From: Minisyncoccota bacterium
GTDB lineage: Bacteria; Patescibacteriota; Minisyncoccia; Phycocordibacterales; Zambryskibacteraceae
Length of the DNA stretch: 64,000 bases
Direction of reading: 5' to 3'
NCBI GenBank assembly: GCA_020059045.1
Contig: JAGVCW010000021.1
Coordinates: 27,821-91,820, forward strand
The notes under the pieces are model-generated. The model searched no databases and was not told the DNA's origin. It saw nothing but the letters and a program-made list of their open reading frames with translations. Of this stretch, positions 3,832-61,186 are shown one piece after another; within the stretch, counting starts at the first letter, position 1; each line of letters starts with the position of its first letter. Both the position numbers and the translations under genes were made by a program.

Positions 3832-4422
3832 ATGACTTATATTTCGGAGGGAGATCGTCGGTTCTGGCAAAGGAAGTACCCAGAGTTGACTGACCCGAAG
3901 AGATGGGATGATAAAGTCTGGAAAAGTGTAAAAATTGGAATGCACGCATCTCCAAATGCTTTGATAGCAGAAGTACGAGAAAAAGGTTTTGAAGTGGGAG
4001 AAGAAACTGTGCACATCTTACATAGTGTTACTTCAGAACCACGAACAGTTGAGCTCGTTCGTATGGAGAAGTGGAATATCACTCGCTGCATCACGCCAGG
4101 CATTGATGAGGATTGGTTGGCGAGACATCTCCCGATCTTTGGTCTAGAACCTGCAAACCCAGAAATTGCACTTGCACTACGCATGGACTACAGCGATCAG
4201 CCAGAAGGTGAAGAATTGGGAGTAGTTGTGGAAGATGCAAGAATTTGGCAGTTCGATCCTTCAGAGCTAGTCCATACAGGTGAGGCTCGTCCAGGTATAA
4301 TTTCACTAAAAAATCTGAAGGGAAGTAAGCAAGTGAGAATCTGGACGGGGGATTACACTTCTGCTCCATGGAATTTTGCCCCAGTGTATGATTGGGTCTT
4401 TGCTCGAGTAACTCCAAGATGA
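3832..4422 (+). CDS. Hypothetical protein
   Basis: 196 aa ORF. No recognisable motif. Confidence 0.45.
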   Translation: MTYISEGDRRFWQRKYPELTDPKRWDDKVWKSVKIGMHASPNALIAEVREKGFEVGEETVHILHSVTSEPRTVELVRMEKWNITRCITPGIDEDWLARHLPIFGLEPANPEIALALRMDYSDQPEGEELGVVVEDARIWQFDPSELVHTGEARPGIISLKNLKGSKQVRIWTGDYTSAPWNFAPVYDWVFARVTPR

Positions 4423-4506
4423 CCATATATTGTCTTGGTTTTTTGTTTTCGTAGTGATCTTTTCCTCAACATAGAGTATTCTGGAGCGAGAGGCTTTCAT
4501 CCCAAA

Positions 4507-4923
4507 ATGGAGGCAGATATGTCAAAGAAACTTCGTAAGCAAGTATTGGGCGAGGCTACAACAGTTGTGCGTCGCGTAACATCCGTGCCACAGCGTGAGC
4601 TAGCAGAGTCAATAGGGATTGATATAAGCAATTGCACAATTGAAAATGCAAAACCAGTTATTGCTAATCGGCTTAGAGACGAGGCTTGGGAACTTGTAGA
4701 AAGGAACAGAATAGTTCCAGGATTAAAGTGTCTTTGTGATGGCGTACCATGCATTGTACAAAAGATTGGTAGTACAGCCCGCGGGTGGGGTAACCCTGGT
4801 GCGATAGTTGTAGTTCGTAAGCTTACTGAGCGTCCATGGACCGGCCATGTACGTCCATCGAGACTTACTGAATTCGATTACTCTCACCCAGTTTCCGTCG
4901 AGCCTAGAACCGCTGCCCCATAA
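4507..4923 (+). CDS. Hypothetical protein with a possible helix-turn-helix
   Basis: Probable start is MEADMSKK at 4507 (the ORF track opens at 4435). The segment PQRELAESIGIDISNCTI resembles an HTH. Confidence 0.4.
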   Translation: MEADMSKKLRKQVLGEATTVVRRVTSVPQRELAESIGIDISNCTIENAKPVIANRLRDEAWELVERNRIVPGLKCLCDGVPCIVQKIGSTARGWGNPGAIVVVRKLTERPWTGHVRPSRLTEFDYSHPVSVEPRTAAP

Positions 4924-7208: not shown

Positions 7209-7817
7209 GTGAAATTTATCCTCGCAAAAAAGAATAGAATGTCAGAAGTCTTTACTGAGAGTGGTTTGGTAATTCCTGTTACTATTCTTTCTGCTACTCC
7301 TATGGTGGTAACTCAGATGAAAGATGAGTCGACCGACGGGTACAAAGCTGTACAAGTAGGATTTGGTACACGCAGAGAAAAGAGAATAAACAAGGCGGTA
7401 AAAGGGCATACCAAGGAGCTTGGCAATTTTCTAAAGCTAAAAGAATTTCGCCTCAAGGATGATACATTTGTCCGCGGTGACAAGATAGATGTTTCTGTCT
7501 TTACTGCAGGAGATGTGGTTGAAGTCTCAGCCATTTCTAAGGGTAAAGGTTTCCAAGGTGTCGTGAAGCGCCACGGATTTGCCGGTGGTCCACGAAGTCA
7601 TGGGCAGAAACACTCAGAGCGTGAGCCAGGATCTATCGGCGGAGGATTGCGTACACATGTTCCGAAAGGTATGCGCATGGCAGGGCGAATGGGTGGCGAT
7701 CGTATAACCGTAAGGAATCTTAAAGTTGTCGAGGTTAATCCTACAGAGAATATTATTTTAGTTTCTGGCGCGGTGCCGGGGAGAAGAGGAACGATTGTCG
7801 AAATCAGAGGTAAATAA
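7209..7817 (+). CDS. rplC: Ribosomal protein L3 (GTG start)
   Basis: MKFILAKKNRMSEVF follows the MKGLIGKKVGMTQIF pattern. GKGFQGVVKRHGF and GGDRITVRNLKVV motifs present. Confidence 0.9.
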   Translation: MKFILAKKNRMSEVFTESGLVIPVTILSATPMVVTQMKDESTDGYKAVQVGFGTRREKRINKAVKGHTKELGNFLKLKEFRLKDDTFVRGDKIDVSVFTAGDVVEVSAISKGKGFQGVVKRHGFAGGPRSHGQKHSEREPGSIGGGLRTHVPKGMRMAGRMGGDRITVRNLKVVEVNPTENIILVSGAVPGRRGTIVEIRGK

Positions 7818-7888
7818 GTTGTAGATGTTCTAAATGTTATATATGTCTGACAATTACAACAACTAGAACAATTACAACAATTAGAACC
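7818..7888 (+). repeat. Intergenic hairpin element, family A, copy 1
   Basis: GTTGTAGATGTTCTAAATGTT...TGTCTGACAAT...ACAACAACTAGAACAATTACAACA. The arms around a TGTCWGACA core are reverse complements. Confidence 0.65.
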
Positions 7889-8659
7889 ATGGACACAACA
7901 GTTTATAACCAAAAAGGTGATTCAGTAGGGAAGATTAAGATTCCTGAATCAGTTTTCGGCGTGAAGTGGAATTCTGACATGGTTCACCAAGTTGTGACGT
8001 CCATGACATCTAGTGCGCGCAGAAACACGGCTCATACAAAGACTCGTGGGGAAGTACGGGGAGGAGGCAAGAAGCCTTGGAAGCAGAAGGGTACAGGACA
8101 GGCTCGTCACGGCTCGACTCGTTCACCAATATGGGTAGGAGGAGGTGTGGCACACGGTCCAAGAAACGATAAGAATTATGATCGCAAGGTGAATCGCAAA
8201 ATGAAGACCAAGGCTCTGTTTGCTATACTTTCTAGAAAGCTAAGTGATGGAGAAATAATTTTTATAGATGCGATTACAATGGGAGAAGCGAAGACAAAGA
8301 ATGCAATCAATATTATTTCAAATTTGAGAAAAATTGAGGGTTTCGATAAGATCTTTAATAAAAAGAAAAACAGTGCTCTCATTACTCTTGGCGAGAAAGA
8401 CGATTCTATAACAAGAAGTTTTAAAAACATAGGGAACGTGAGTGTCGATGAAATTCGTAATATAAACCCAGTTACACTTTTAAATTACAAAGCTCTCATC
8501 ATTTTAAATCCAGAAGCGTCTCTTCGATTACTTGAATCAAGGCTTAAGCAGAAAGCTACAGGTGATGCAGAAGGAGTGATAAAGAAAAAGTTTACAGCTA
8601 AAAAGAAAGGAGCTACAACAAAGAAAAAAGTAGTAGCTGCAAAGCCAAAGTCTTTATAA
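7889..8659 (+). CDS. rplD: Ribosomal protein L4 with a Lys-rich C-terminal tail
   Basis: RGGGKKPWKQKGTGQARHGSTRSPIWVGGGVAHGP motif. Confidence 0.9.
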   Translation: MDTTVYNQKGDSVGKIKIPESVFGVKWNSDMVHQVVTSMTSSARRNTAHTKTRGEVRGGGKKPWKQKGTGQARHGSTRSPIWVGGGVAHGPRNDKNYDRKVNRKMKTKALFAILSRKLSDGEIIFIDAITMGEAKTKNAINIISNLRKIEGFDKIFNKKKNSALITLGEKDDSITRSFKNIGNVSVDEIRNINPVTLLNYKALIILNPEASLRLLESRLKQKATGDAEGVIKKKFTAKKKGATTKKKVVAAKPKSL

Positions 8660-8669
8660 CAACTCATTT

Positions 8670-9050
8670 ATGGCCCTATTTTCAAAAAAACCCAAAGAAA
8701 AAGTTAAGAAAGACTCTCCAAAGAGTGTTTCACCAGAAGGACCTGTCGCATCAATCGAAACGATGGGTGGTACATCTTTTGCCCATATTCTCTTGCAGCC
8801 ACGTATTACGGAGAAAGCATCTCTCAAGGCAGAGAGCAATAATGTTTATGTCTTTGAAGTAAGCCCTCGTGCGTCAAAAAGTGACATAAGGCAGGCAGTG
8901 AAAGAAATTTATAAAGTGTCTCCAGAAAAAGTTTCTGTCGCACGAATCCCAAGTAAAAGTATTGTGGTTCGTGGTAAGCAAGGTGTGCGATCAGGTGGCA
9001 AGAAAGCCTATGTGTACCTGAAGAAGGGAGAGAAGATAGAGGTAATTTAG
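8670..9050 (+). CDS. rplW: Ribosomal protein L23
   Basis: ILLQPRITEKAS...YVFEVSPRASKSDIRQAVKEIYKV. Confidence 0.85.
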   Translation: MALFSKKPKEKVKKDSPKSVSPEGPVASIETMGGTSFAHILLQPRITEKASLKAESNNVYVFEVSPRASKSDIRQAVKEIYKVSPEKVSVARIPSKSIVVRGKQGVRSGGKKAYVYLKKGEKIEVI

Positions 9051-9225
9051 AAATTCAACGAACGAAGTGAGTATGAATTACTTAACCCCAACAAATTTTA
9101 TAGATACACAATTACCCAATTATTCTTGTGTATTTAATAACCACGAGTTATTATCCTTGGGCAATTTCTCAACGATAAAATTTGAGGGGGTCATGATTTT
9201 CTAATCGCTCTGCTCAAGAAAATCT
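9051..9225 (+). repeat. Intergenic palindromic element, family B, copy 2
   Basis: Starts AACGAACGAAGTGAGTATG. Internal inverted repeat CCCCAACAAATTTT / AAAATTTGAGGGGG. Ends CTAATCGCTCTGCTCAAGAAAATCT directly before the rplB ATG. Confidence 0.65.
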
Positions 9226-14349: not shown

Positions 14350-14709
14350 GTGACACGATCATCAAAAAAAGGCCCCTATGTATATGAGCGCCTTCTGAAG
14401 AAAATTGAAGGCAAAAAGCCCGAGCAAGCTGGGGTTATTAAGACATGGGCAAGGGACAGCCAGATCGCTCCCGAGATGGTTGGCTACACATTTGGAGTAC
14501 ATAATGGTAAGGATCATATTGAAGTTTTTGTAACTGAAGACATGGTGGGTCATAGACTCGGCGAATTCTCACCTACACGTAAGTTCGTTAAACATGGCGG
14601 TAAGATGCAGAAAGAACTTGAGCAGAAGAAGAAAGAATCAGAAATAGCATCTGCTCAAGCGGCCAAAGCCTCTGTAAGTGCAGGAGCAAATACAGTACCG
14701 GCGAAGTAG
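14350..14709 (+). CDS. rpsS: Ribosomal protein S19 (probable GTG start)
   Basis: [13 protein letters not shown]...[31 protein letters not shown]. The ORF track opens at 14272, but the S19 N-terminus aligns from the GTG at 14350. Confidence 0.85.
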
Positions 14710-14813
14710 CTTAAATGTTCTAAGTGTTGTATGTGTTATACATGTCATACAACTTCAACAATTCAAACAAATAAAACAACTAGAACATCTATAACAATTA
14801 AAACCGCGAATTT
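14710..14813 (+). repeat. Intergenic hairpin element, family A, copy 2
   Basis: AAATGTTCTAAGTGTTGTATG...CATACAACTTCAACAATT...AACAACTAGAACATCTATAACA. Confidence 0.6.
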
Positions 14814-16325: not shown

Positions 16326-16396
16326 GATCTTCCTACTCTAGCTTGTAACCTATCTAACACCTATAACAACTAGAACATATATAACACTTACAACCA
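16326..16396 (+). repeat. Intergenic hairpin element, family A, copy 3
   Basis: ...ACCTATAACAACTAGAACATATATAACACTTACAACC before the rplP ATG. Confidence 0.55.
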
Positions 16397-16813: not shown

Positions 16814-16903
16814 ATAGCGCTTGTTGTAAATGATGTATATGTTCTAAGTGTCTGACAAATACAACATCTACAACATTTAAAAACATTTACAACAAAATAT
16901 AGT
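16814..16903 (+). repeat. Intergenic hairpin element, family A, copy 4
   Basis: TTGTTGTAAATGATGTATATGTTCTAAGTGTCTGACAAATACAACATCTACAACATTTAAAAACA. Confidence 0.6.
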
Positions 16904-17382: not shown

Positions 17383-17558
17383 GGAGCTTGGCGACTATAA
17401 ATAACCTGACCCCCCATCATTTTTAACAATGAAACCTGAAACATTAAAAAAAGATATTGAAAAACATTTCTATTATAGTATCCGATGAAACATATTTTAA
17501 AAATGATGAGGGATGGTGATTTTCAAAAACTCACTATCGCTCGTTAAGAAAATCAACC
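17383..17558 (+). repeat. Intergenic palindromic element, family B, copy 3
   Basis: Internal inverted repeat CCCCCCATCATTTTTAA / TTAAAAATGATGAGGGATGG. Ends CTCACTATCGCTCGTTAAGAAAATCAACC directly before the rplN ATG. Confidence 0.65.
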
Positions 17559-17930
17559 ATGATCCAACCCCGCTCAATAGTAAAAATAGCAGACAACTCA
17601 GGCGCCAAAATCGGTAGAGTTTTCAAGGTGCTTGGTGGGTCTAAGAAGAGATACGCACGTATTGGTGATGTGGTGGTATTGTCGGTTCAGGTAGCACAAC
17701 CTAGAAAGTCAGTGAAAAAGAAAGACATTTTGTACGCGGTGGTAGCACGTCAGAGAACACCATTTCGCAGACAAGATGGTTCCTACATTCGTTTCGATGA
17801 GAATGCAGTGATAATTGTTGATAAAGCAAAGCACGAGCCTATCGCAGGACGTGTTTTCGGACCGATCCCAAGAGAGCTTGGCGAGATGGGATTCCAGCAG
17901 GTAATATCATTAGCACAAGAGGTAGTTTAG
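17559..17930 (+). CDS. rplN: Ribosomal protein L14
   Basis: MIQPRSIVKIADNSGAKIGRVFKVLGGSKKRYARIGDVVV. Confidence 0.95.
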   Translation: MIQPRSIVKIADNSGAKIGRVFKVLGGSKKRYARIGDVVVLSVQVAQPRKSVKKKDILYAVVARQRTPFRRQDGSYIRFDENAVIIVDKAKHEPIAGRVFGPIPRELGEMGFQQVISLAQEVV

Positions 17931-18149
17931 AAAATCAAGGAGTGAAACGACTATGATTTACTTAACCCCACCTAAATTTTGCATCGAAGACAGAAGCGCA
18001 GTGCGCGGCCGAGTAGGCCAAGCGGTCATGGGCGAAGCGCTGCGCCTCGAAAGGTTTGTGACTATTCGTCACTCGCACTTCTTGTGGTAATGTAAAAGCA
18101 AAATTTAGGCGGGGTCATGATTTTCCAATCGCTCCGCTCAAAAAAATCA
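17931..18149 (+). repeat. Intergenic palindromic element, family B, copy 4
   Basis: Near-perfect 29 bp inverted repeat (ATGATTTACTTAACCCCACCTAAATTTTGC / GCAAAATTTAGGCGGGGTCATGATTTTCC) around a GC-rich hairpin. Ends CAATCGCTCCGCTCAAAAAAATCA directly before the rplX ATG. Confidence 0.7.
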
Positions 18150-18455: not shown

Positions 18456-18532
18456 AGTTATAAATGTTGTAATTGTTGTAGTGTCAGACATTTATAACAT
18501 CTACAACATTTAGAACAATTTCAACATACAAA
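18456..18532 (+). repeat. Intergenic hairpin element, family A, copy 5
   Basis: ATAAATGTTGTAATTGTTGTAGTGTCAGACATTTATAACATCTACAACATTTAGAACA. Confidence 0.6.
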
Positions 18533-20778: not shown

Positions 20779-20881
20779 TAAAAGATTGTTCTAGATGTTG
20801 TAATTGATATACATGTTATAAATGTCTGACAAATACAACAACTAAAACATTTTGAAACAAATATAACATCTCAAACATTAC
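20779..20881 (+). repeat. Intergenic hairpin element, family A, copy 6
   Basis: TGTTCTAGATGTTGTAATTGATATACATGTTATAAATGTCTGACAAATACAACAACTAAAACA. Confidence 0.6.
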
Positions 20882-21265
20882 ATGGATCCCATCGCTGACA
20901 TGATAATAAGAATCAAGAATGCAGGAGAATCCCGCAAGGATACAGTGGCTTTTCCATATTCAAATTTGAAAGCAAGCATCTGCAAAACTCTTCTAGATAG
21001 TGGATACATAAAATCTCTTGTTATAAAAGGGAAGATTGCCAAATCAATAGAAGTCGGACTTATTTACAACGGCAAGTTCCCAAAGATCCAAGGTGTGAAG
21101 AGACTTTCGAAGCCTTCTCGTCGTCTATACAAGGCCTCAAGTGATCTACGGCCGGTTAAGAGAGGGTATGGATCTCTCATCATGTCTACTCCGAAGGGAA
21201 TAATGGTAGGAGAGCATGCCCGTAAGTCTAAAGTCGGTGGTGAGGCATTATTTGAAATATGGTAA
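20882..21265 (+). CDS. rpsH: Ribosomal protein S8
   Basis: MDPIADMIIRIKNAG...GEALFEIW. Confidence 0.9.
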   Translation: MDPIADMIIRIKNAGESRKDTVAFPYSNLKASICKTLLDSGYIKSLVIKGKIAKSIEVGLIYNGKFPKIQGVKRLSKPSRRLYKASSDLRPVKRGYGSLIMSTPKGIMVGEHARKSKVGGEALFEIW

Positions 21266-21353
21266 TGGCTTTGTCTAAATTTTACGAACGAAGTGAAATA
21301 AAATTTAGTAACAAAACATTAACTCACTATCGTTCGTTAAGAAAATCAACCAC
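21266..21353 (+). repeat. Intergenic palindromic element, family B, copy 5
   Basis: 88 bp, about 97% identical to copy 6. TTACGAACGAAGTGAAATAAAATTTAGT...CTCACTATCGTTCGTTAAGAAAATCAACCAC-ATG. Confidence 0.75.
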
Positions 21354-21887
21354 ATGAGCAGAATCGGAAAAGGAAAAATAGATATCCCAGAGAAAACTGA
21401 AGTTATTCTTCTTGCAGACACTGTCGTGGTAAAGGGGCCATTAGGTGAATTGTCTCACAAAGTTCACTCAGATATAGGTATTGAGATTGCTTCCGGAAGC
21501 GTAACATTTGTTCCCAAAGTTAATACTCTTGAAGCAAATGCTCTCTGGGGCACGACGTCTTCTCACTTGTCCAATATGATAGATGGAGTGAACAAACCTT
21601 TTGAAAAGAAATTAGTTTTAGAAGGCATTGGATATAAGGTAGAGGTAAAGGGAGATAAGATTCATCTTGCACTAGGCTTTTCTCATCCTGTAGAAGTTTT
21701 AATACCAAAAGGCTTGAATGTAAAAGTTGAGAAAAATGCCGTAACGATATCTGGCATTAGCAAGGACGATGTCGGGAGTTTCACAGCACGTCTGCGTGAC
21801 TTGAAGAAGCCGGAACCTTACAAAGGCAAAGGATTCAAATATTTTGGCGAAGTGATCAAGATTAAGCAGGGTAAAAAGTCAGTATAA
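21354..21887 (+). CDS. rplF: Ribosomal protein L6
   Basis: MSRIGKGKIDIPEKTEV...KPEPYKGKGFKY. Confidence 0.9.
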   Translation: MSRIGKGKIDIPEKTEVILLADTVVVKGPLGELSHKVHSDIGIEIASGSVTFVPKVNTLEANALWGTTSSHLSNMIDGVNKPFEKKLVLEGIGYKVEVKGDKIHLALGFSHPVEVLIPKGLNVKVEKNAVTISGISKDDVGSFTARLRDLKKPEPYKGKGFKYFGEVIKIKQGKKSV

Positions 21888-21975
21888 TGGCTTTGTCTAA
21901 ATTTTATGAACGAAGTGAAATAAAATTTAGTAACAAAACATTAACTCACTATCGCTCGTTAAGAAAATCAACCAC
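21888..21975 (+). repeat. Intergenic palindromic element, family B, copy 6
   Basis: Near-identical to the copy at 21266-21353. Ends CTCACTATCGCTCGTTAAGAAAATCAACCAC-ATG (rplR). Confidence 0.75.
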
Positions 21976-22329
21976 ATGAAGACAACTAATCATAAAAGCT
22001 CAAAAAGAAATCGTAGACATACAAAAATCAGGACGAAAGTTTCTGGTACTTCTAGCCGCCCACGTCTTTCTGTATTTCGCTCCAATATGTATCTCTATGC
22101 TCAAGTCATAGATGATGAGAGTGGTAAAACACTTTTCTCCATTTCATCTAAAGGTATGAAGAAGGGAGGTGTCGGGTTTGAATCAGCTCGTGAACTGGGT
22201 AAGACGCTTGCCAAGTCTGTTATCGCAGGCAACATCAAGAAGGTTGTGTTTGATCGGGGTGGATATATGTATACTGGTAAGGTTCGTGCTCTTGCAGACG
22301 GAGCTCGCGAAGGAGGTCTAGAATTCTAA
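21976..22329 (+). CDS. rplR: Ribosomal protein L18
   Basis: RPRLSVFRSNMYLYAQVIDD...VVFDRGGYMYTGKVRALADGAREGGLEF. Confidence 0.9.
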   Translation: MKTTNHKSSKRNRRHTKIRTKVSGTSSRPRLSVFRSNMYLYAQVIDDESGKTLFSISSKGMKKGGVGFESARELGKTLAKSVIAGNIKKVVFDRGGYMYTGKVRALADGAREGGLEF

Positions 22330-25486: not shown

Positions 25487-25660
25487 GAGTACTCCTTGTG
25501 GGTAAGGGAGGTATATTCCTCATATGTATTACCATTTAGGTGGCGCTTTAGTCAAACTGAATTTTTCTAAGTAAACCCATGGTATAGCATCACAAAACTA
25601 GCAATTTGTGTTATTATAATCAGACACTGCACCGTATTTCTAATGTCTTGTCGCCTGGTT

Positions 25661-25709
25661 TCATTCCTCATTCCTCATTCCTCATTCCTCATTCCTCATT
25701 CCTCATTAC
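25661..25709 (+). repeat. Heptanucleotide tandem repeat (TCATTCC) x6, plus one TCATTAC
   Basis: Perfect 7-nt tandem copies occupy 25661-25702, 28 nt upstream of the adk start. Slipped-strand phase variation is possible. Confidence 0.8.
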
Positions 25710-25729
25710 TTATTCATAATTCTTCCTTC

Positions 25730-26320
25730 ATGTTCTCCTTTATTTTCATAGGTCGCTCTGGTTGTGGTAAAGGTACTCAAGCCGATTTGCTACAAGCCTA
25801 TATTAAATCCAAGGATGAAAGTCCAATTCTCTACATTGAGACTGGCGCTAATTTCAGAGAATTCATTAAAGGTGCAAATTATACAAACACTCTTTCAAAG
25901 CAAGTTTACGAAAGTGACCATGTCCAGCCCGCCTTTCTCGCAGCTTATATGTGGAGTTTCGAAATGGTAGCAAAGTATACGGGTAAGGAGCACCTGATTT
26001 TTGACGGGACTCCGCGGTCTCTTGAGGAAGCTCAGATTTTAGCTGGTGCACTAGACTTTTATTCAATTGCAAGTACTGTGGTGATTCATCTCGAAGTTTC
26101 ACGTGCTTGGTCGGAGCGTCATCTCTTGAGTCGCGGAAGGTCAGATGATGCTAATATCTCACGCATAGATAAGAGGCTTGATTGGTTTGATGCCAATGTG
26201 ATTCCAGCTATAAATTATTTTAAAAGTAACAGCAAGTATCACTTTGTAGAAGTAAATGGCGAGCAAACTATAGCTGAGGTCCAAAATGAAATTATTGAGA
26301 AACTTAAACCCGTTTTATAA
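25730..26320 (+). CDS. adk: Adenylate kinase-like P-loop kinase (divergent)
   Basis: FIFIGRSGCGKGTQA is a P-loop in the adk position after secY. It has the LID-like segment RGRSDDANI and the overall length of adenylate kinase. Start MFSFIFIG at 25730; the ORF track opens upstream, inside the repeat. Confidence 0.65.
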   Translation: MFSFIFIGRSGCGKGTQADLLQAYIKSKDESPILYIETGANFREFIKGANYTNTLSKQVYESDHVQPAFLAAYMWSFEMVAKYTGKEHLIFDGTPRSLEEAQILAGALDFYSIASTVVIHLEVSRAWSERHLLSRGRSDDANISRIDKRLDWFDANVIPAINYFKSNSKYHFVEVNGEQTIAEVQNEIIEKLKPVL

Positions 26321-27845: not shown

Positions 27846-28457
27846 ATGAATACACCTCAAAAAGAAAGAACATTTGTTTTTGTTAAGCATGATGGAATAC
27901 AGCGCTCTCTTGTGGGAGAAATAATAAAGAGAATAGAGAGAACTGGGCTCAAAATTGTTGCTATGAAGATGTTTGTGCCAGATCGCAAACGTGCGGAGAT
28001 TCATTATGGCAAAAACGACACTTGGTGCGCGGAGAAAGGTCAAATCCAGGTAGAAAATCTAAAAAAGATGGGGATTGAGCCGACTAAGCCTGCAATAGAA
28101 TACGGACGTGACAAAGTAGAAGCAATAATAAATTACATAACAGTTGGACCTGTGATAGCCATGGTGATAGAAGGGAATCAGGCTGTAGGAATAGTGAAAA
28201 AGATTGTTGGGGGAACGGAACCCCTTACATCTGATGTTGGGACCATTCGAGGCGACCTTACACTAGACTCTTATGCTGCAGCAGATAGTGGTGGGGCGGT
28301 TACTAGGGCAGTTAGAAACCTAATGCATTGCACAGGCAAACCAGAGGAAGCAGAAGGGGAGATTAACCTGTGGTTTAAAGAAGATGAGATAATCAATTAT
28401 CGTCTTGTTCAGGAAGCGATTCTTTACGACGTAAATCTAGACGGCATCCTCGAATAA
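27846..28457 (+). CDS. ndk: Nucleoside diphosphate kinase with an internal insertion
   Basis: ERTFVFVKHDGIQRSLVGEIIKRIERTGLKIVAMK matches the [25 protein letters not shown] consensus. C-terminal NLMHCTGKPEEAEGEINLWF matches N.IHGSDS.E.A..EI.LWF. Confidence 0.75.
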   Translation: MNTPQKERTFVFVKHDGIQRSLVGEIIKRIERTGLKIVAMKMFVPDRKRAEIHYGKNDTWCAEKGQIQVENLKKMGIEPTKPAIEYGRDKVEAIINYITVGPVIAMVIEGNQAVGIVKKIVGGTEPLTSDVGTIRGDLTLDSYAAADSGGAVTRAVRNLMHCTGKPEEAEGEINLWFKEDEIINYRLVQEAILYDVNLDGILE

Positions 28458-28480
28458 ATGTTAAACACTCGGTGTTGTAC
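28458..28480. repeat. Left palindromic inverted repeat of a single-gene cassette
   Basis: ATGTTAAACACTCGGTGTTGTAC. Its reverse-complement partner is TGTTAAACACCGAGTGTTTAACA at 29189-29212. Confidence 0.6.
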
Positions 28481-28496
28481 ATTAACCAACGGTCTA

Positions 28497-28524
28497 CAAA
28501 AAAGCCTTATTTCAAGGCTTTTTT
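28497..28524 (+). terminator. Rho-independent terminator after ndk
   Basis: AAAAAAGCCTTATTTCAAGGCTTTTTT. Confidence 0.65.
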
Positions 28525-28540
28525 GGTAAGTAAAAACTTC

Positions 28541-28569
28541 TTGACTTTTCTACTCAGTCTATGGTATAA
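28541..28569 (+). promoter_or_regulatory. Sigma70-like promoter, TTGACT-18-TATAAT
   Basis: CTTGACTTTTCTACTCAGTCTATGGTATAAT. GGAGG lies 8 nt before the 28667 ATG. Confidence 0.5.
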
Positions 28570-28666
28570 TATTGGTATATCTAGCTCCATTTAGGGTCTG
28601 GGTATGTATTAAAGGAATTGGCACTTAGGCCTCTTCCTCAACCGTTCTTTCCAGTTTGGAGGTCGT

Positions 28667-29110
28667 ATGGAACCCTATTCCAGGCTCCAGTATGTCGTAC
28701 TCGTTCTCTGCAGTGTTATTACTCTCGGGACGATCCTCTTCATGCTCAATCGGCAGTACAAGATAAGAAAGGCGGGTGCATTTCAGGAGATCTTTGGTTT
28801 CAATCCCATGCAAACGTGGGTCGAGACTCCTATGACAAGGCACGAGCGTCAAGATAAAGTCAATCTTGCTCTAGAGCACCTGGCTATGATGCTCTCAGTG
28901 CAGACCCATCTCGCAGGACGTGAGTTTGGGCATCCTCCGACCGCAAAAGGCGTAAAGAAAATGTTCTGGCAGGCGCACAAGATTGCCCGCTCATGGGGAT
29001 ACCAAGTGAGAGGCAGTTGGACTGAGTATCTTGATGTGAATCCTCTGCAATGGTTAGTTCTCGGTCAATCGATCCATGCAGCGACAGTGGCAGCAGCAAA
29101 GAAACCATAA
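28667..29110 (+). CDS. Hypothetical membrane-anchored protein (cassette cargo)
   Basis: 147 aa with an N-terminal TM helix. Higher GC. Has its own promoter, SD and terminator, all bracketed by inverted repeats. Confidence 0.5.
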   Translation: MEPYSRLQYVVLVLCSVITLGTILFMLNRQYKIRKAGAFQEIFGFNPMQTWVETPMTRHERQDKVNLALEHLAMMLSVQTHLAGREFGHPPTAKGVKKMFWQAHKIARSWGYQVRGSWTEYLDVNPLQWLVLGQSIHAATVAAAKKP

Positions 29111-29124
29111 CCCCATCAGGAGGA

Positions 29125-29152
29125 GTAAACCCCACCTGTTGGGGTTTTTTTA
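29125..29152 (+). terminator. Rho-independent terminator
   Basis: AAACCCCACCTGTTGGGGTTTTTTTATTTT. Confidence 0.65.
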
Positions 29153-29188
29153 TTTTAGAGACGTACAACTTAAGCGATAAGACCATTA

Positions 29189-29212
29189 AATGTTAAACAC
29201 CGAGTGTTTAAC
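29189..29212. repeat. Right palindromic inverted repeat of the cassette
   Basis: TGTTAAACACCGAGTGTTTAACA is itself a perfect hairpin and the reverse complement of the core of the left repeat. Confidence 0.6.
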
Positions 29213-29379
29213 ATACTACATAAGCTGCATGGTCGGTAAAGCTTTTCATAATGAGGTTTTTGTTTCCTACTGTGCTCTTCACACTTTCCTTATATTGTGT
29301 GAGTAATATAATGTATGAGGGTTATTTGGCATATTATCTAGATTAAAGTAATTTTAAAGGGAGTCCTATATTTCCTCAC

Positions 29380-29496
29380 TTTAATGAAGCCTTCGGGCAT
29401 CTGACAAGTGAGGTTGCGGACACCCACCTGGCAAATAGCTAGGGCAATATGTCCAAGTAACCCACACAAAGAACCCCGTATACGGGATTTTTTGTT
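29380..29496 (+). ncRNA. Candidate small structured RNA
   Basis: CCTCACTT...AAGTGAGG stem enclosing a GCC-UUCG-GGC tetraloop hairpin. Followed by AACCCCGTATACGGGATTTTTTG, which looks like an intrinsic terminator. Confidence 0.3.
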
Positions 29497-41155: not shown

Positions 41156-41243
41156 CCTGAGGGTGTTTTTGCTATTTCGCTCCCAGGTGGTTTACCACGA
41201 GCGAGCCTTCGACCTGGCTCAGGCCAGGGCGAAGCGAGTCGAG

Positions 41244-41678
41244 TGGAGATGGGCGGAATCGAACCGCCGTGCAATAGAAGAGATGAAAGATTTCTACAAG
41301 AGGTAGTTTGTTTCAATCTGCCTGTTGGCAGATATTTAGACTCTGTAAGTATGGAACAAACAAAATCTTACAAAGTCGAGCTTCTACATTTCGGAAACAA
41401 GCAAAGCAATTTGTTTCCAGAGTCTCAAGTTATTACGCGAGCAACTTGTTATGAGACATCACAAGTGCTAACGTCGCTTAGGCCGACCCAGACACCGAAG
41501 TGTCGGGTTAAGAGGCGTAAACGAAAGCGAAATCCTTAGCTCCAAAATATGGAGAAACTAGAGACCCAGCTTTTGCGACAATGCTGTTTGCAATTATCGG
41601 TTGTGGCGGATTTAAGAGTCACCACAGCTCTCCCTTGCATCTATCAAATGAATTCTACTGTCTAGGCCGATCATCCCC
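41244..41678 (-). ncRNA. ssrA: tmRNA (transfer-messenger RNA)
   Basis: Minus strand. The 3' end reads GGCGGUUCGAUUCCGCC-CAUCUCC-A (T-arm plus acceptor strand). The 5' end GGGGAUG pairs with it and includes a G3:U wobble, the AlaRS identity element. An internal frame AUAAUU-GCA-AAC... resembles the E. coli resume-codon context and encodes ANSIVAKAGSLVSPYFGAKDFAFVYAS*. The smpB gene lies 350 bp upstream on the same strand. Confidence 0.65.
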
Positions 41679-48792: not shown

Positions 48793-48866
48793 AGAATATT
48801 TGTCCACCCTCCACGATTTGAACGTGGGACCCTCGAGGTATAAGCTCGATGCTCTAACCAACTGAG
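48793..48866 (-). tRNA. tRNA-Ile with anticodon UAU (reads AUA)
   Basis: Minus strand: CCACCCU-UA-GCUC-AGUUGGUUA-GAGC-A-UCGAG-CUUAUAC-CUCGA-GGGUC-CCACG-UUCAAAU-CGUGG-AGGGUGG-A. Perfect cloverleaf. The anticodon-loop middle triplet is UAU. The D-arm is typical of Ile/Met. Confidence 0.7.
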
Positions 48867-49017
48867 CTAAGGGTGGTATAGCGCTCAAATACTATATCAA
48901 ATATGGAAATCCTTCAATTATTACAGTCGTGCGGTTAAGTGTCCCAGCTATCCACAACGTGAGTATTCACATTGTTATAACCTAAGGGTATACTTCTAAT
49001 CAAGTTGCGGTCCTGTC

Positions 49018-61080: not shown

Positions 61081-61106
61081 TTCAAAGTTGCCAATCTGGC
61101 GGAGAG
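61081..61106. repeat. 26-bp direct repeat spanning the tRNA-Ser 3' end plus 16 bp of flank (copy 1)
   Basis: TTCAAAGTTGCCAATCTGGCGGAGAG. Identical copy at 62655-62680. Confidence 0.85.
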
Positions 61107-61186
61107 AGTGGGATTCGAACCCACGGTTCCGGTAAAGGAACGACGGTTTAGTAAACCGTTGATTTAAACCACTCATCCATCTCTCC
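61097..61186 (-). tRNA. tRNA-Ser (type II, long variable arm) with an apparent ACU anticodon
   Basis: GGAGAGA-UG-GAU-GAGUGGUUUAA-AUC-A-ACGGU-UUACUAA-ACCGU-[CGUUCCUUUACCGGAACC]-GUGGG-UUCGAAU-CCCAC-UCUCUCC-G-CCA. Discriminator G73, a 3-bp D-stem and a long V-arm indicate Ser identity. The loop UUACUAA gives anticodon ACU rather than the usual GCU. CCA is encoded. Confidence 0.7.

Follow-up and report, generated by a model that had tools for sequence, protein, structure and literature searches.

REP-Like Palindromes of a Probable Patescibacterial REP/RAYT System Flank an Acquired ORFan Gene Downstream of ndk

Introduction

Repetitive extragenic palindromes (REPs) and the REP-associated tyrosine transposases (RAYTs, or TnpA-REP) of Enterobacteria, Pseudomonas and Stenotrophomonas (4ER8; PMC3479197, PMC6006769, PMC3116915) are the nearest known system to the locus reported here, in which two copies of a 25-bp palindrome bracket a single small gene. 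The locus lies in a 64,000-nucleotide stretch (the window) of a Minisyncoccota genome, contig JAGVCW010000021.1, positions 27,821 to 91,820. We propose, with a probability of about 65%, that the two palindromes are REP copies of a REP/RAYT system of Patescibacteria (also termed the Candidate Phyla Radiation, CPR), on either side of an ORFan gene that was acquired laterally and carries its own expression signals. An initial annotation of the unit as a possible new mobile cassette thereby gives way to a largely conventional account, of REPs around an acquired ORFan. In our survey of the full-text literature, no paper connected RAYTs, REPINs or REP/RAYT systems with Patescibacteria, and none contained the palindrome or its encoded peptide in this context, although coverage was incomplete and an earlier description is possible.

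Several features tie the element to this known system. It is a short hairpin palindrome, dispersed among loci, that also flanks a single Y1/HUH transposase gene at a fixed locus, and the CPR protein concerned has E. coli TnpA-REP as its best structural match. It departs from classical REPs in having a perfect stem of 11–13 bp with a 3-nt loop, where theirs is imperfect and bulged, and a foot of the form A-A-ATGT that lacks the 5′ GT[AG]G. Its copy number is low, with two copies in the 64-kb window and ~1–2 exact copies per contig of 50–208 kb, compared with hundreds per genome. Copies often lie inside genes, whereas classical REPs are mostly extragenic, and one 25-mer is shared by hosts of 30–61% GC, whereas classical REPs are species-specific. 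The associated protein, in addition, scores below the NCBIfam cut-off for RAYTs. Each of these departures has partial precedent; in the window, moreover, the flanked gene is not a transposase gene. REPtrons (the units in which REPs flank a RAYT gene) have been described, as have REPs lying in frame within tnpA-REP, in one subclass, and within unrelated genes; REPtrons are described as not transposing as units; and non-canonical REPs without GTAG accompany TnpA-Y1 subclass 2.6 and class 3 (PMC6006769).

The insertion sequences (IS) of the IS200/IS605 type and their transposase-less derivatives, the palindrome-associated transposable elements, resemble the present locus in their Y1/HUH superfamily, in hairpins at both ends of a ~0.7-kb unit and in the absence of a target-site duplication (TSD). 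Here, however, one palindrome stands at both ends where IS200/IS605 elements have a left-end hairpin and a different right-end one, the window unit lacks a Y1 transposase between its palindromes and has a single-copy interior, and the related transposase units appear to hold their position instead of occurring in many copies.

Rickettsia palindromic elements are palindromic repeats of ~100–150 bp that are kept in frame in coding genes and add a short peptide to housekeeping proteins; no dedicated transposase is known to serve them. The element described here has a Y1 transposase as its partner and is shorter, with 25–29 bp or 9 codons. Miniature inverted-repeat transposable elements (MITEs), composite cassettes and the pdif modules of Acinetobacter likewise place a short gene segment, absent from relatives, between inverted ~25-bp sites. 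Unlike a MITE or composite cassette, the window unit has no TSD and no further copies as a whole, and its ends are free-standing and single elsewhere. In pdif modules the layout is 11-6-11, XerC/D bind the sites, and these are not found inside genes, in contrast to the 11-3-11 layout, Y1/HUH partner and many in-gene copies of the present element.

Results

The Palindrome Is a Free-Standing, Dispersed Hairpin

A repeat search of the window identifies inverted-repeat arms at 28458–28483 and 29189–29214 (26 nt, 92% complementary, 705 nt apart), each of which is a palindrome of its own with the layout 11-3-11 (Table 1). The initial annotation had recognized these partners as palindromic inverted repeats, with coordinates that differ from ours by 1–2 nt; the element itself measures 25 bp. 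The 3-nt centres of copies 1 and 2 are reverse complements of each other, and it is solely for this reason that the pair counts as inverted rather than direct. The orientation was dropped as a clue, since the centre flips freely among the copies of transposase units described below (L063, L075, L059 and L056). The start-to-start distance is 732 bp. When folded as single-stranded DNA, copy 1 gives −5.4 kcal/mol (z = −2.6) and copy 2 −8.9 kcal/mol (z = −5.9); for the hairpin of the palindrome the values run from −8.9 to −10.3 kcal/mol (z = −5.9 to −7.9). The 64-kb window contains no copies beyond these two in a 19-mer search at ≤3 mismatches (chance expectation 0.02), for which none of 100 shuffled controls reached three matches; a 25-mer scan at ≤6 mismatches adds one site, at chance level. 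No TSD is found in the window sequence, the flanks ...CGAATAA and ACTACAT... sharing no direct repeat, and neither copy overlaps a promoter by sequence reading or promoter scan.

Copy 2 is the same 25-mer that recurs in 106 stretches of public metagenome contigs, mostly from groundwater and sediment samples, returned by one scan with the pattern ATGTTAAACAC-NNN-GTGTT[G/T][A/T]ACAT. The contig of the window is not itself among these hits. The palindrome is therefore clearly not confined to the window. The 3-nt centre is TCG at 49 sites and CGA at 43, such that 92 of the 115 sites are one 25-mer in either orientation; TCA/TGA, CAG/CTG and CGG/CCG are minor variants. Base preferences in the flanks are limited to A at −2/−1 and T at +1 to +3; these bases add to the stem, for a length of ~13 bp, and bring the full element to 25–29 bp, the perfect hairpin (AA)ATGTTAAACAC-TCG-GTGTTTAACAT(TT). 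Exact copies occur at the low density given above, a figure that applies to contigs and not to whole genomes. Flanking sequence is unrelated between loci, gene neighbours show no conservation, and the orientation classes of those neighbours are evenly mixed. These findings rule out both terminal repeats private to one cassette and a MITE whose interior is conserved. What had been taken for terminal inverted repeats of the window unit are thus two copies of a stand-alone 25-bp element, which elsewhere occurs singly, in unrelated surroundings and even within genes.

Thirty non-redundant copies away from the transposase, over half of all such copies, lie in open reading frames (ORFs). They are always read in one of the two frames that lack a stop codon (no TAA), as NVKHSVFNI in 23 cases and as MLNTECLT in 7. 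Pfam confirms seven host genes, which encode triosephosphate isomerase (TIM), RNase HII, FolD, TruB, TsaD, an RluA-type pseudouridine synthase and a TrxB-like reductase; coordinates are collected in Table 1. The tpiA (TIM) gene of L125, a contig of 61% GC, carries two copies, and three diverged truB orthologs carry the element at the same position. In an alignment of TIM homologs, the encoded peptides fall in length-variable loops and some orthologs have decayed forms (HVKHPMFN, IKYSVFD), but the alignment yields no exact boundary between empty and filled states for the TIM copies. Some in-gene copies look length-neutral relative to homologs. They may have arisen by insertion or by replacement of a patch of coding sequence. 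The presence of lone copies inside unrelated genes identifies the 25–29-bp hairpin as the dispersing entity. Given these in-gene copies and the association with a Y1 transposase, we dropped an operator, a dif/Xer site, parS, an integron attC site and a CRISPR repeat as candidate identities.

A Y1/HUH Transposase Accompanies the Palindrome

An ORF of ~221 aa recurs beside the palindrome at 32 of the 106 loci. Its product passes the Pfam threshold for Y1_Tnp (PF01797, IS200-like) with 40–43 bits against a cut-off of 23, and contains an HUH motif (NHFHL) and the motif Y-x-H-R-N-P (Y-I-H-R-N-P). At the level of sequence, a single-sequence search of the PDB with the CPR protein returned no TnpA-REP match, and a family profile matched ISDra2 TnpA (E 0.003) without finding 4ER8. 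An AlphaFold2 model built with 45 homologs (pLDDT, the predicted local confidence, 85.7; pTM, the predicted template-modelling score, 0.84) has as its top Foldseek match 4ER8, the E. coli REP-associated tyrosine transposase bound to a REP hairpin (E 8.5e-6, TM 0.68), with the TnpA proteins of IS608 and ISDra2 ranked below it. The family comprises 3259 clusters in a 5.8-billion-protein collection, annotated as “transposase” in Parcubacteria, Nomurabacteria, Minisyncoccia and Curtissbacteria; the putative REP/RAYT system is widespread in Patescibacteria.

The palindrome occupies three fixed places at each transposase locus: upstream of the gene, within the ORF, and directly after the stop codon. 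The upstream copy lies ~27–50 bp before the start codon, its outer half TTTAAC being 17 nt from a TATAAT. The internal copy encodes V-K-H-S/R-V-F-N-I, which falls in a low-confidence loop of the model before the HUH motif. The 5′ and 3′ copies are 700–746 bp apart, and the arrangement as a whole matches the published REPtron. Transposases sharing the identical 25-mer are 54–83% identical to each other. Among 120 homologs, the two arms within the transposase ORF vary together (K/F, AAA..TTT, 67; Q/L, CAA..TTG, 10; Q/F, 10; K/L, 2), and this covariation argues that the hairpin itself is under selection.

Separately, we note that in L145 (6892–7636), and also in L063, L104, L122 and others, a REP lies inside the transposase frame while the 5′ REP overlaps the promoter −35 position. 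This placement suggests either autoregulation of the transposase gene or a REP sequence that has become “frozen”.

The Bracketed Gene Is a Probably Acquired ORFan

The features that the initial annotation assigned to the gene between the palindromes, namely a TTGACT-18-TATAAT promoter, a GGAGG Shine-Dalgarno sequence, a 147-aa ORF and a terminator, are all present (Table 1). The promoter, with 11 of 12 matches, is the best site in the 2.7 kb scanned, a region in which the total number of sites is not above chance. The product is a basic protein of 16.9 kDa with a single predicted membrane helix, in line with the earlier description of the ORF as membrane-anchored; the Kyte-Doolittle 19-residue window peaks at 2.53 over residues 9–27. 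The elevated GC content that had been reported for the gene also holds: it is foreign in composition, with a GC of 0.50 and a GC at third codon positions (GC3) of 0.534, compared with a GC3 of 0.29–0.36 for six neighbouring genes. So large a difference from its neighbours makes the cargo gene look laterally acquired. Palindrome copy 2 begins 34 nt past its terminator.

The cargo protein has no match in Pfam, NCBIfam, PHROGs or PADLOC, and among 5.8 billion proteins it matches itself alone (P0001). A protein search had been part of the earlier proposal, and the self-match is joined by one remote relative, P0002, found among 1.84 billion representatives with a library-wide E of 7.5e-4. In pairwise comparison the two are 32% identical over 94 aa (E 3e-12) and share the conserved C-terminal motif FW-x-AH-x-(3)-A-(4)-G-(3)-VR-x-S-x-TEYL. 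P0002 (L155 6001–6537) has 178 aa and two N-terminal hydrophobic segments. Its gene lies in a group of small hypothetical genes, with corC on one side of the group and a dCTP-deaminase/thyA/folA cluster on the other, on a CPR-like contig of 275 kb that contains no REP; the region reads as GC-rich, an impression for which no value was computed. A single-sequence AlphaFold2 model of the cargo protein is all-helical and poor (pLDDT 49.8), unfit for a fold search. At the DNA level, the interior of the unit matches nothing in 154 fetched loci apart from the palindromes. Neither a palindrome copy nor a relative of the cargo was found among IMG/VR viral contigs, and a phage or plasmid vector was dropped on this basis. 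Judged by these sequence searches, the cargo is an ORFan with one remote homolog.

The Unit Is a Lineage-Specific Insertion between ndk and a 6S-like RNA Gene

The genes around the unit are adk, map, ndk, a gene for a small membrane protein and one for a beta-CASP RNase. The nearest Ndk relatives come from Patescibacteria genome bins, with 72–76% amino-acid identity, and the gene order is the same in L001–L006 and, more distantly, in L145. In all seven of these loci ndk is followed directly by the 6S-like RNA gene, which provides the empty site in relatives for which the initial annotation had called. The spacer between ndk and this gene is ~55–155 nt in L001–L005 and L145 and ~340 nt in L006, as against ~860 nt in the window. 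This far greater distance marks the ~750 bp as an insertion specific to the window lineage. The palindrome is absent from 48 ndk loci, whether exact or at ≤4 mismatches.

The ndk stop codon TAA (28455–28457) abuts palindrome copy 1, and the Ndk C terminus (...DGILE*) is identical to that of the relatives. Just inside the bracket lies a strong terminator (28497–28525) with 12-nt perfect arms, which does not figure in the initial annotation; it was missed by a simple terminator scan and is evident from the repeat search and from RNA folding (−14.6 kcal/mol, z = −4.1). Relatives L002, L003 and L005 have a terminator of the same type 3–24 nt past the ndk stop; with copy 1 removed, that of the window would lie ~14 nt after the stop, within their range. 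The position of copy 1 between the ndk stop and an ndk-type terminator makes it look like a separate insertion into the ndk 3′ untranslated region. On this sequence reading, the cassette proper probably begins after the terminator, copy 1 being distinct from it.

The 6S-like RNA is conserved immediately after ndk in L001–L006 and L145. It gives a weak match to the Rfam 6S model (26.4 bits, E 0.005), short of the gathering score (46.4); RNAalifold, applied to 6 sequences, predicts 35 pairs, with compensatory changes in 13 of them. In this lineage of Patescibacteria, the non-coding RNA at 29307–29495 probably represents 6S RNA that goes undetected at the Rfam threshold.

Table 1. Coordinates of the palindrome copies, the bracketed gene unit and its flanks in the window, and of palindrome copies within genes of other loci
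Feature	Position	Strand	Description
ndk (nucleoside diphosphate kinase)	27846..28457	+	Pfam NDK, E 3.9e-33
Palindrome copy 1 (putative REP)	28458..28482	.	ATGTTAAACAC-TCG-GTGTTgtACAT, 2 stem mismatches
A-tract/hairpin/T-tract terminator	28497..28525	+	CAAAAAAGCCTT-ATTTC-AAGGCTTTTTTG; closely follows copy 1 within the bracket; probably belongs to ndk
Promoter of cargo gene, sigma-70 type	28541..28570	+	TTGACT-18-TATAAT, TG before the −10 box
Shine-Dalgarno sequence GGAGG	28658..28662	+	4 nt before ATG at 28667; read from sequence
Cargo ORF	28667..29110	+	147 aa, predicted N-terminal membrane helix (residues ~8–27), pI (isoelectric point) 9.9
Intrinsic terminator of cargo gene	29127..29155	+	Stem-loop 29127–29147 and T-run; RNA fold −11.4 kcal/mol
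Palindrome copy 2 (putative REP)	29190..29214	.	Perfect palindrome ATGTTAAACAC-CGA-GTGTTTAACAT
6S-like structured non-coding RNA	29318..29495	+	Own −10 box (29307–29312) and terminator; right edge of ancestral DNA
In-gene copies, tpiA	L125 1173 and 1713		Two copies in one gene
In-gene copy, rnhB	L082 292		In frame
In-gene copies, folD	L085 850; L107 4202		In frame
In-gene copies, truB	L060 66; L084 12457; L133 1785		In frame
In-gene copy, tsaD	L096 1821		In frame
In-gene copy, RluA-type synthase gene	L102 1200		In frame
In-gene copy, trxB-like gene	L064 403		In frame

A Comparable Slot Beside a Glutaredoxin Gene

In eight loci of 77–82% DNA identity, the REP-transposase-REP unit always lies beside the same glutaredoxin gene, a constant chromosomal position that speaks for stability over hopping. 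The slot between the two is empty in L129 and L109 and holds a small variable gene in L104, L150, L122 and L058; L058 alone has a second REP on the far side of that gene. The occurrence of slot genes without a second REP indicates that a small gene can come and go at this place unbracketed.

The L058 arrangement (4403–4869) is an observation in its own right, with a 72–73-aa gene between two REPs that are 442 bp apart. The slot genes of L150 and L122 look related to it.

Returning to the window, the ndk-type terminator inside the bracket, the unique interior and the lack of a TSD suggest that the two palindrome copies are not clearly the ends of one unit.

Discussion

The bracket is most likely two REPs around a foreign gene, a REPtron layout minus the transposase, rather than a demonstrated transposable cassette. 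In the course of events that we envisage, the hairpin would form in single-stranded DNA, where the ~221-aa Y1/HUH transposase would recognize it, cut and rejoin, by analogy with the solved E. coli and IS608 enzymes; this chemistry is modelled on 4ER8 and IS608. Single REP copies would thereby be seeded in intergenic DNA and also within genes, where they keep the reading frame. One copy would have landed between the ndk stop codon and the ndk terminator, and a foreign single gene with its own promoter, Shine-Dalgarno sequence and terminator would have been inserted between ndk and the 6S-like RNA gene, with the second REP copy coming to sit 34 nt beyond the terminator of the acquired gene. We infer that the REP insertions were independent of the gene acquisition, and the order of events is proposed in the same spirit. 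The initial description of the unit as a MITE or an IS-derived cassette survives in part: mobile DNA of IS200/IS605-superfamily ancestry, an insertion and a foreign cargo are all found, whereas private terminal repeats, a TSD, a transposase in the window and further copies of the interior are not.

Several observations weigh against this account. The ~221-aa protein scores 37.6 bits against NCBIfam REP_Tyr_transpos, well below the cut-off of 80, and the element does not have the canonical 5′ GT[AG]G foot of classical REPs. No RAYT-like gene was detected in the 64-kb window (tblastn; best E of the family hidden Markov model, HMM, 0.64), so that the window supplies no cognate enzyme for the REPs. 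It contains just two palindrome copies, both of them next to one gene; we estimate that two independent insertions would have this outcome in ~3% of cases (given ~65 genes), and the coincidence hints at a link between REPs and the cassette. Their 732-bp spacing falls within the 700–746-bp range of transposase units, and independent insertion leaves this unexplained. Finally, the relatives, with at most ~72% DNA identity, are too distant to fix the breakpoints of the empty site.

These points bear on three other explanations. One, unlikely in our view yet deserving of attention, is that REPs captured or mobilized the gene and that REP-cargo-REP is a non-autonomous unit. A RAYT supplied in trans might move the segment as in IS200/IS605 elements, with one hairpin as the left end and the other as the right; alternatively, a circular DNA that carried a REP might integrate by strand exchange at a resident REP and leave one REP on each side. 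The unit is missing from all relatives examined, its cargo is compositionally foreign, and the sole two REPs in 64 kb flank that cargo in a layout and at a spacing that mimic REP-RAYT-REP units (732 versus 700–746 bp), much as L058 has a REP, a 72-aa ORF and a REP (442 bp) in a slot that is empty in sister loci; the lack of a TSD is also what IS200/IS605 chemistry predicts. A captured unit fits poorly, however, with an interior found nowhere else (protein collections, 154 loci and viral contigs), with an ndk-type terminator inside its left end, with a variable gene that L150, L122 and L104 carry without a second REP, with the absence of a transposase from the window, and with the positional stability of REP-RAYT-REP units, which is likewise reported for REPtrons (PMC6006769).

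The resemblance in spacing (732 versus 700–746 bp) might also be the trace of a decayed REPtron, in which a REP-RAYT-REP unit once stood between ndk and the 6S-like gene and its transposase gene was replaced by the ORFan cassette. There is a parallel in some E. coli strains, where a toxin/antitoxin operon has replaced the REPtron locus (PMC6006769), and L145, a 50–56% identical relative with the same adk-map-ndk-6S-membrane protein-beta-CASP block, has a REPtron ~2.7 kb downstream of ndk. We consider such a history improbable all the same: no residual RAYT similarity in DNA or protein was detected in any frame (tblastn, family HMM), no internal palindrome remnant at ≤6 mismatches, and no REPtron at this exact site in any relative examined, and neither copy adjoins a RAYT-type promoter, with its −10 box 17 nt from the TTTAAC of the REP. 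Least probable, to the point where we would be surprised to see it borne out, is that the palindromes are protein-binding sites, whether operators for a dimeric transcription factor or the core sites of a site-specific recombinase (an Xer/dif-like module, an invertible segment or an integron attC). The perfect 11-3-11 dyad with its asymmetric centre, placed on either side of a promoter-bearing segment, has the look of such a site, and in RAYT units the half-site TTTAAC lies 17 nt from TATAAT so that the hairpin overlaps the −35 position. But over half of the copies outside transposase units lie in unrelated housekeeping coding sequences, the flanks and neighbouring genes are unconserved with no coherent gene set at promoters, and neither window copy overlaps a promoter. 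As regards recombinases, the steady partner is a Y1/HUH transposase rather than a regulator or a recombinase of the tyrosine or serine type, the 3-nt centre is too short for the 6–8-bp overlap region of tyrosine recombinases, and the integron motifs stand in the wrong order (GTTAAAC...GTTTAAC).

We therefore prefer REP copies around an acquired ORFan gene. A more speculative extension, about which we are doubtful, is that pairs of REPs in Patescibacteria serve as portable ends that capture and move arbitrary single-gene cassettes, by a RAYT acting in trans or by REP-by-REP strand exchange. If this were true, REP-bounded cargo mobilization would have its first two cases in the units of the window and of L058. 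Linked to it is the idea that the REP sequence is invariant, across hosts of 30–61% GC and transposases of 54–83% identity, because one copy sits in the transposase's own frame (V-K-H-S-V-F-N-I).

The transposase family has more than 3000 protein clusters in Patescibacteria, and the hairpin lies in frame in essential genes such as tpiA, folD, truB, rnhB and tsaD. For the annotation of CPR genomes, the 25-mer can serve as a marker of the element, as can the peptides NVKHSVFNI and MLNTECLT. One invariant, perfect hairpin and a small enzyme make a clean substrate for the question of how RAYTs spread REPs, and the system allows one to ask whether REP pairs ferry genes in organisms with tiny genomes.

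Additional Features of the Window

Intergenic arrays with a 9-bp period occur at window positions 7817–7897, 14707–14805, 16344–16395, 16822–16894, 18457–18526 and 20787–20868. They consist of TGTTnTAnA units followed by the mirror form ACAAnTAnA, are ~70–80 nt long and imperfectly palindromic, and recur upstream of the adk-map block in at least six gaps whose two bordering genes share a strand. They form a family distinct from the REP. A 95-nt direct repeat with 98% identity, its copies 622 bp apart, is found at 21263–21357 and 21885–21979; shorter kin lie at 17528–17559, 9038–9099 and 17918–17979, with the motifs ACGAACGAAGTGA / TCACTATCG(C/T)TCGTT.

At the 5′ end of the adenylate kinase ORF call, a tandem run with a 14-nt period (TCATTCC-type units, 25647–25736) gives the predicted protein an odd N terminus, ...FLIPHSSFLIPHSS..., and the true adk start is probably downstream of this run. 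A transfer-messenger RNA of 438 nt lies at 41241–41678. ARAGORN also calls a tRNA-Ile with anticodon TAT at 48802–48876 (−) and a 90-nt tRNA-Ser with anticodon ACT at 61097–61186 (−); the unusual ACT anticodon may reflect a mis-call or decoding through a modified base.

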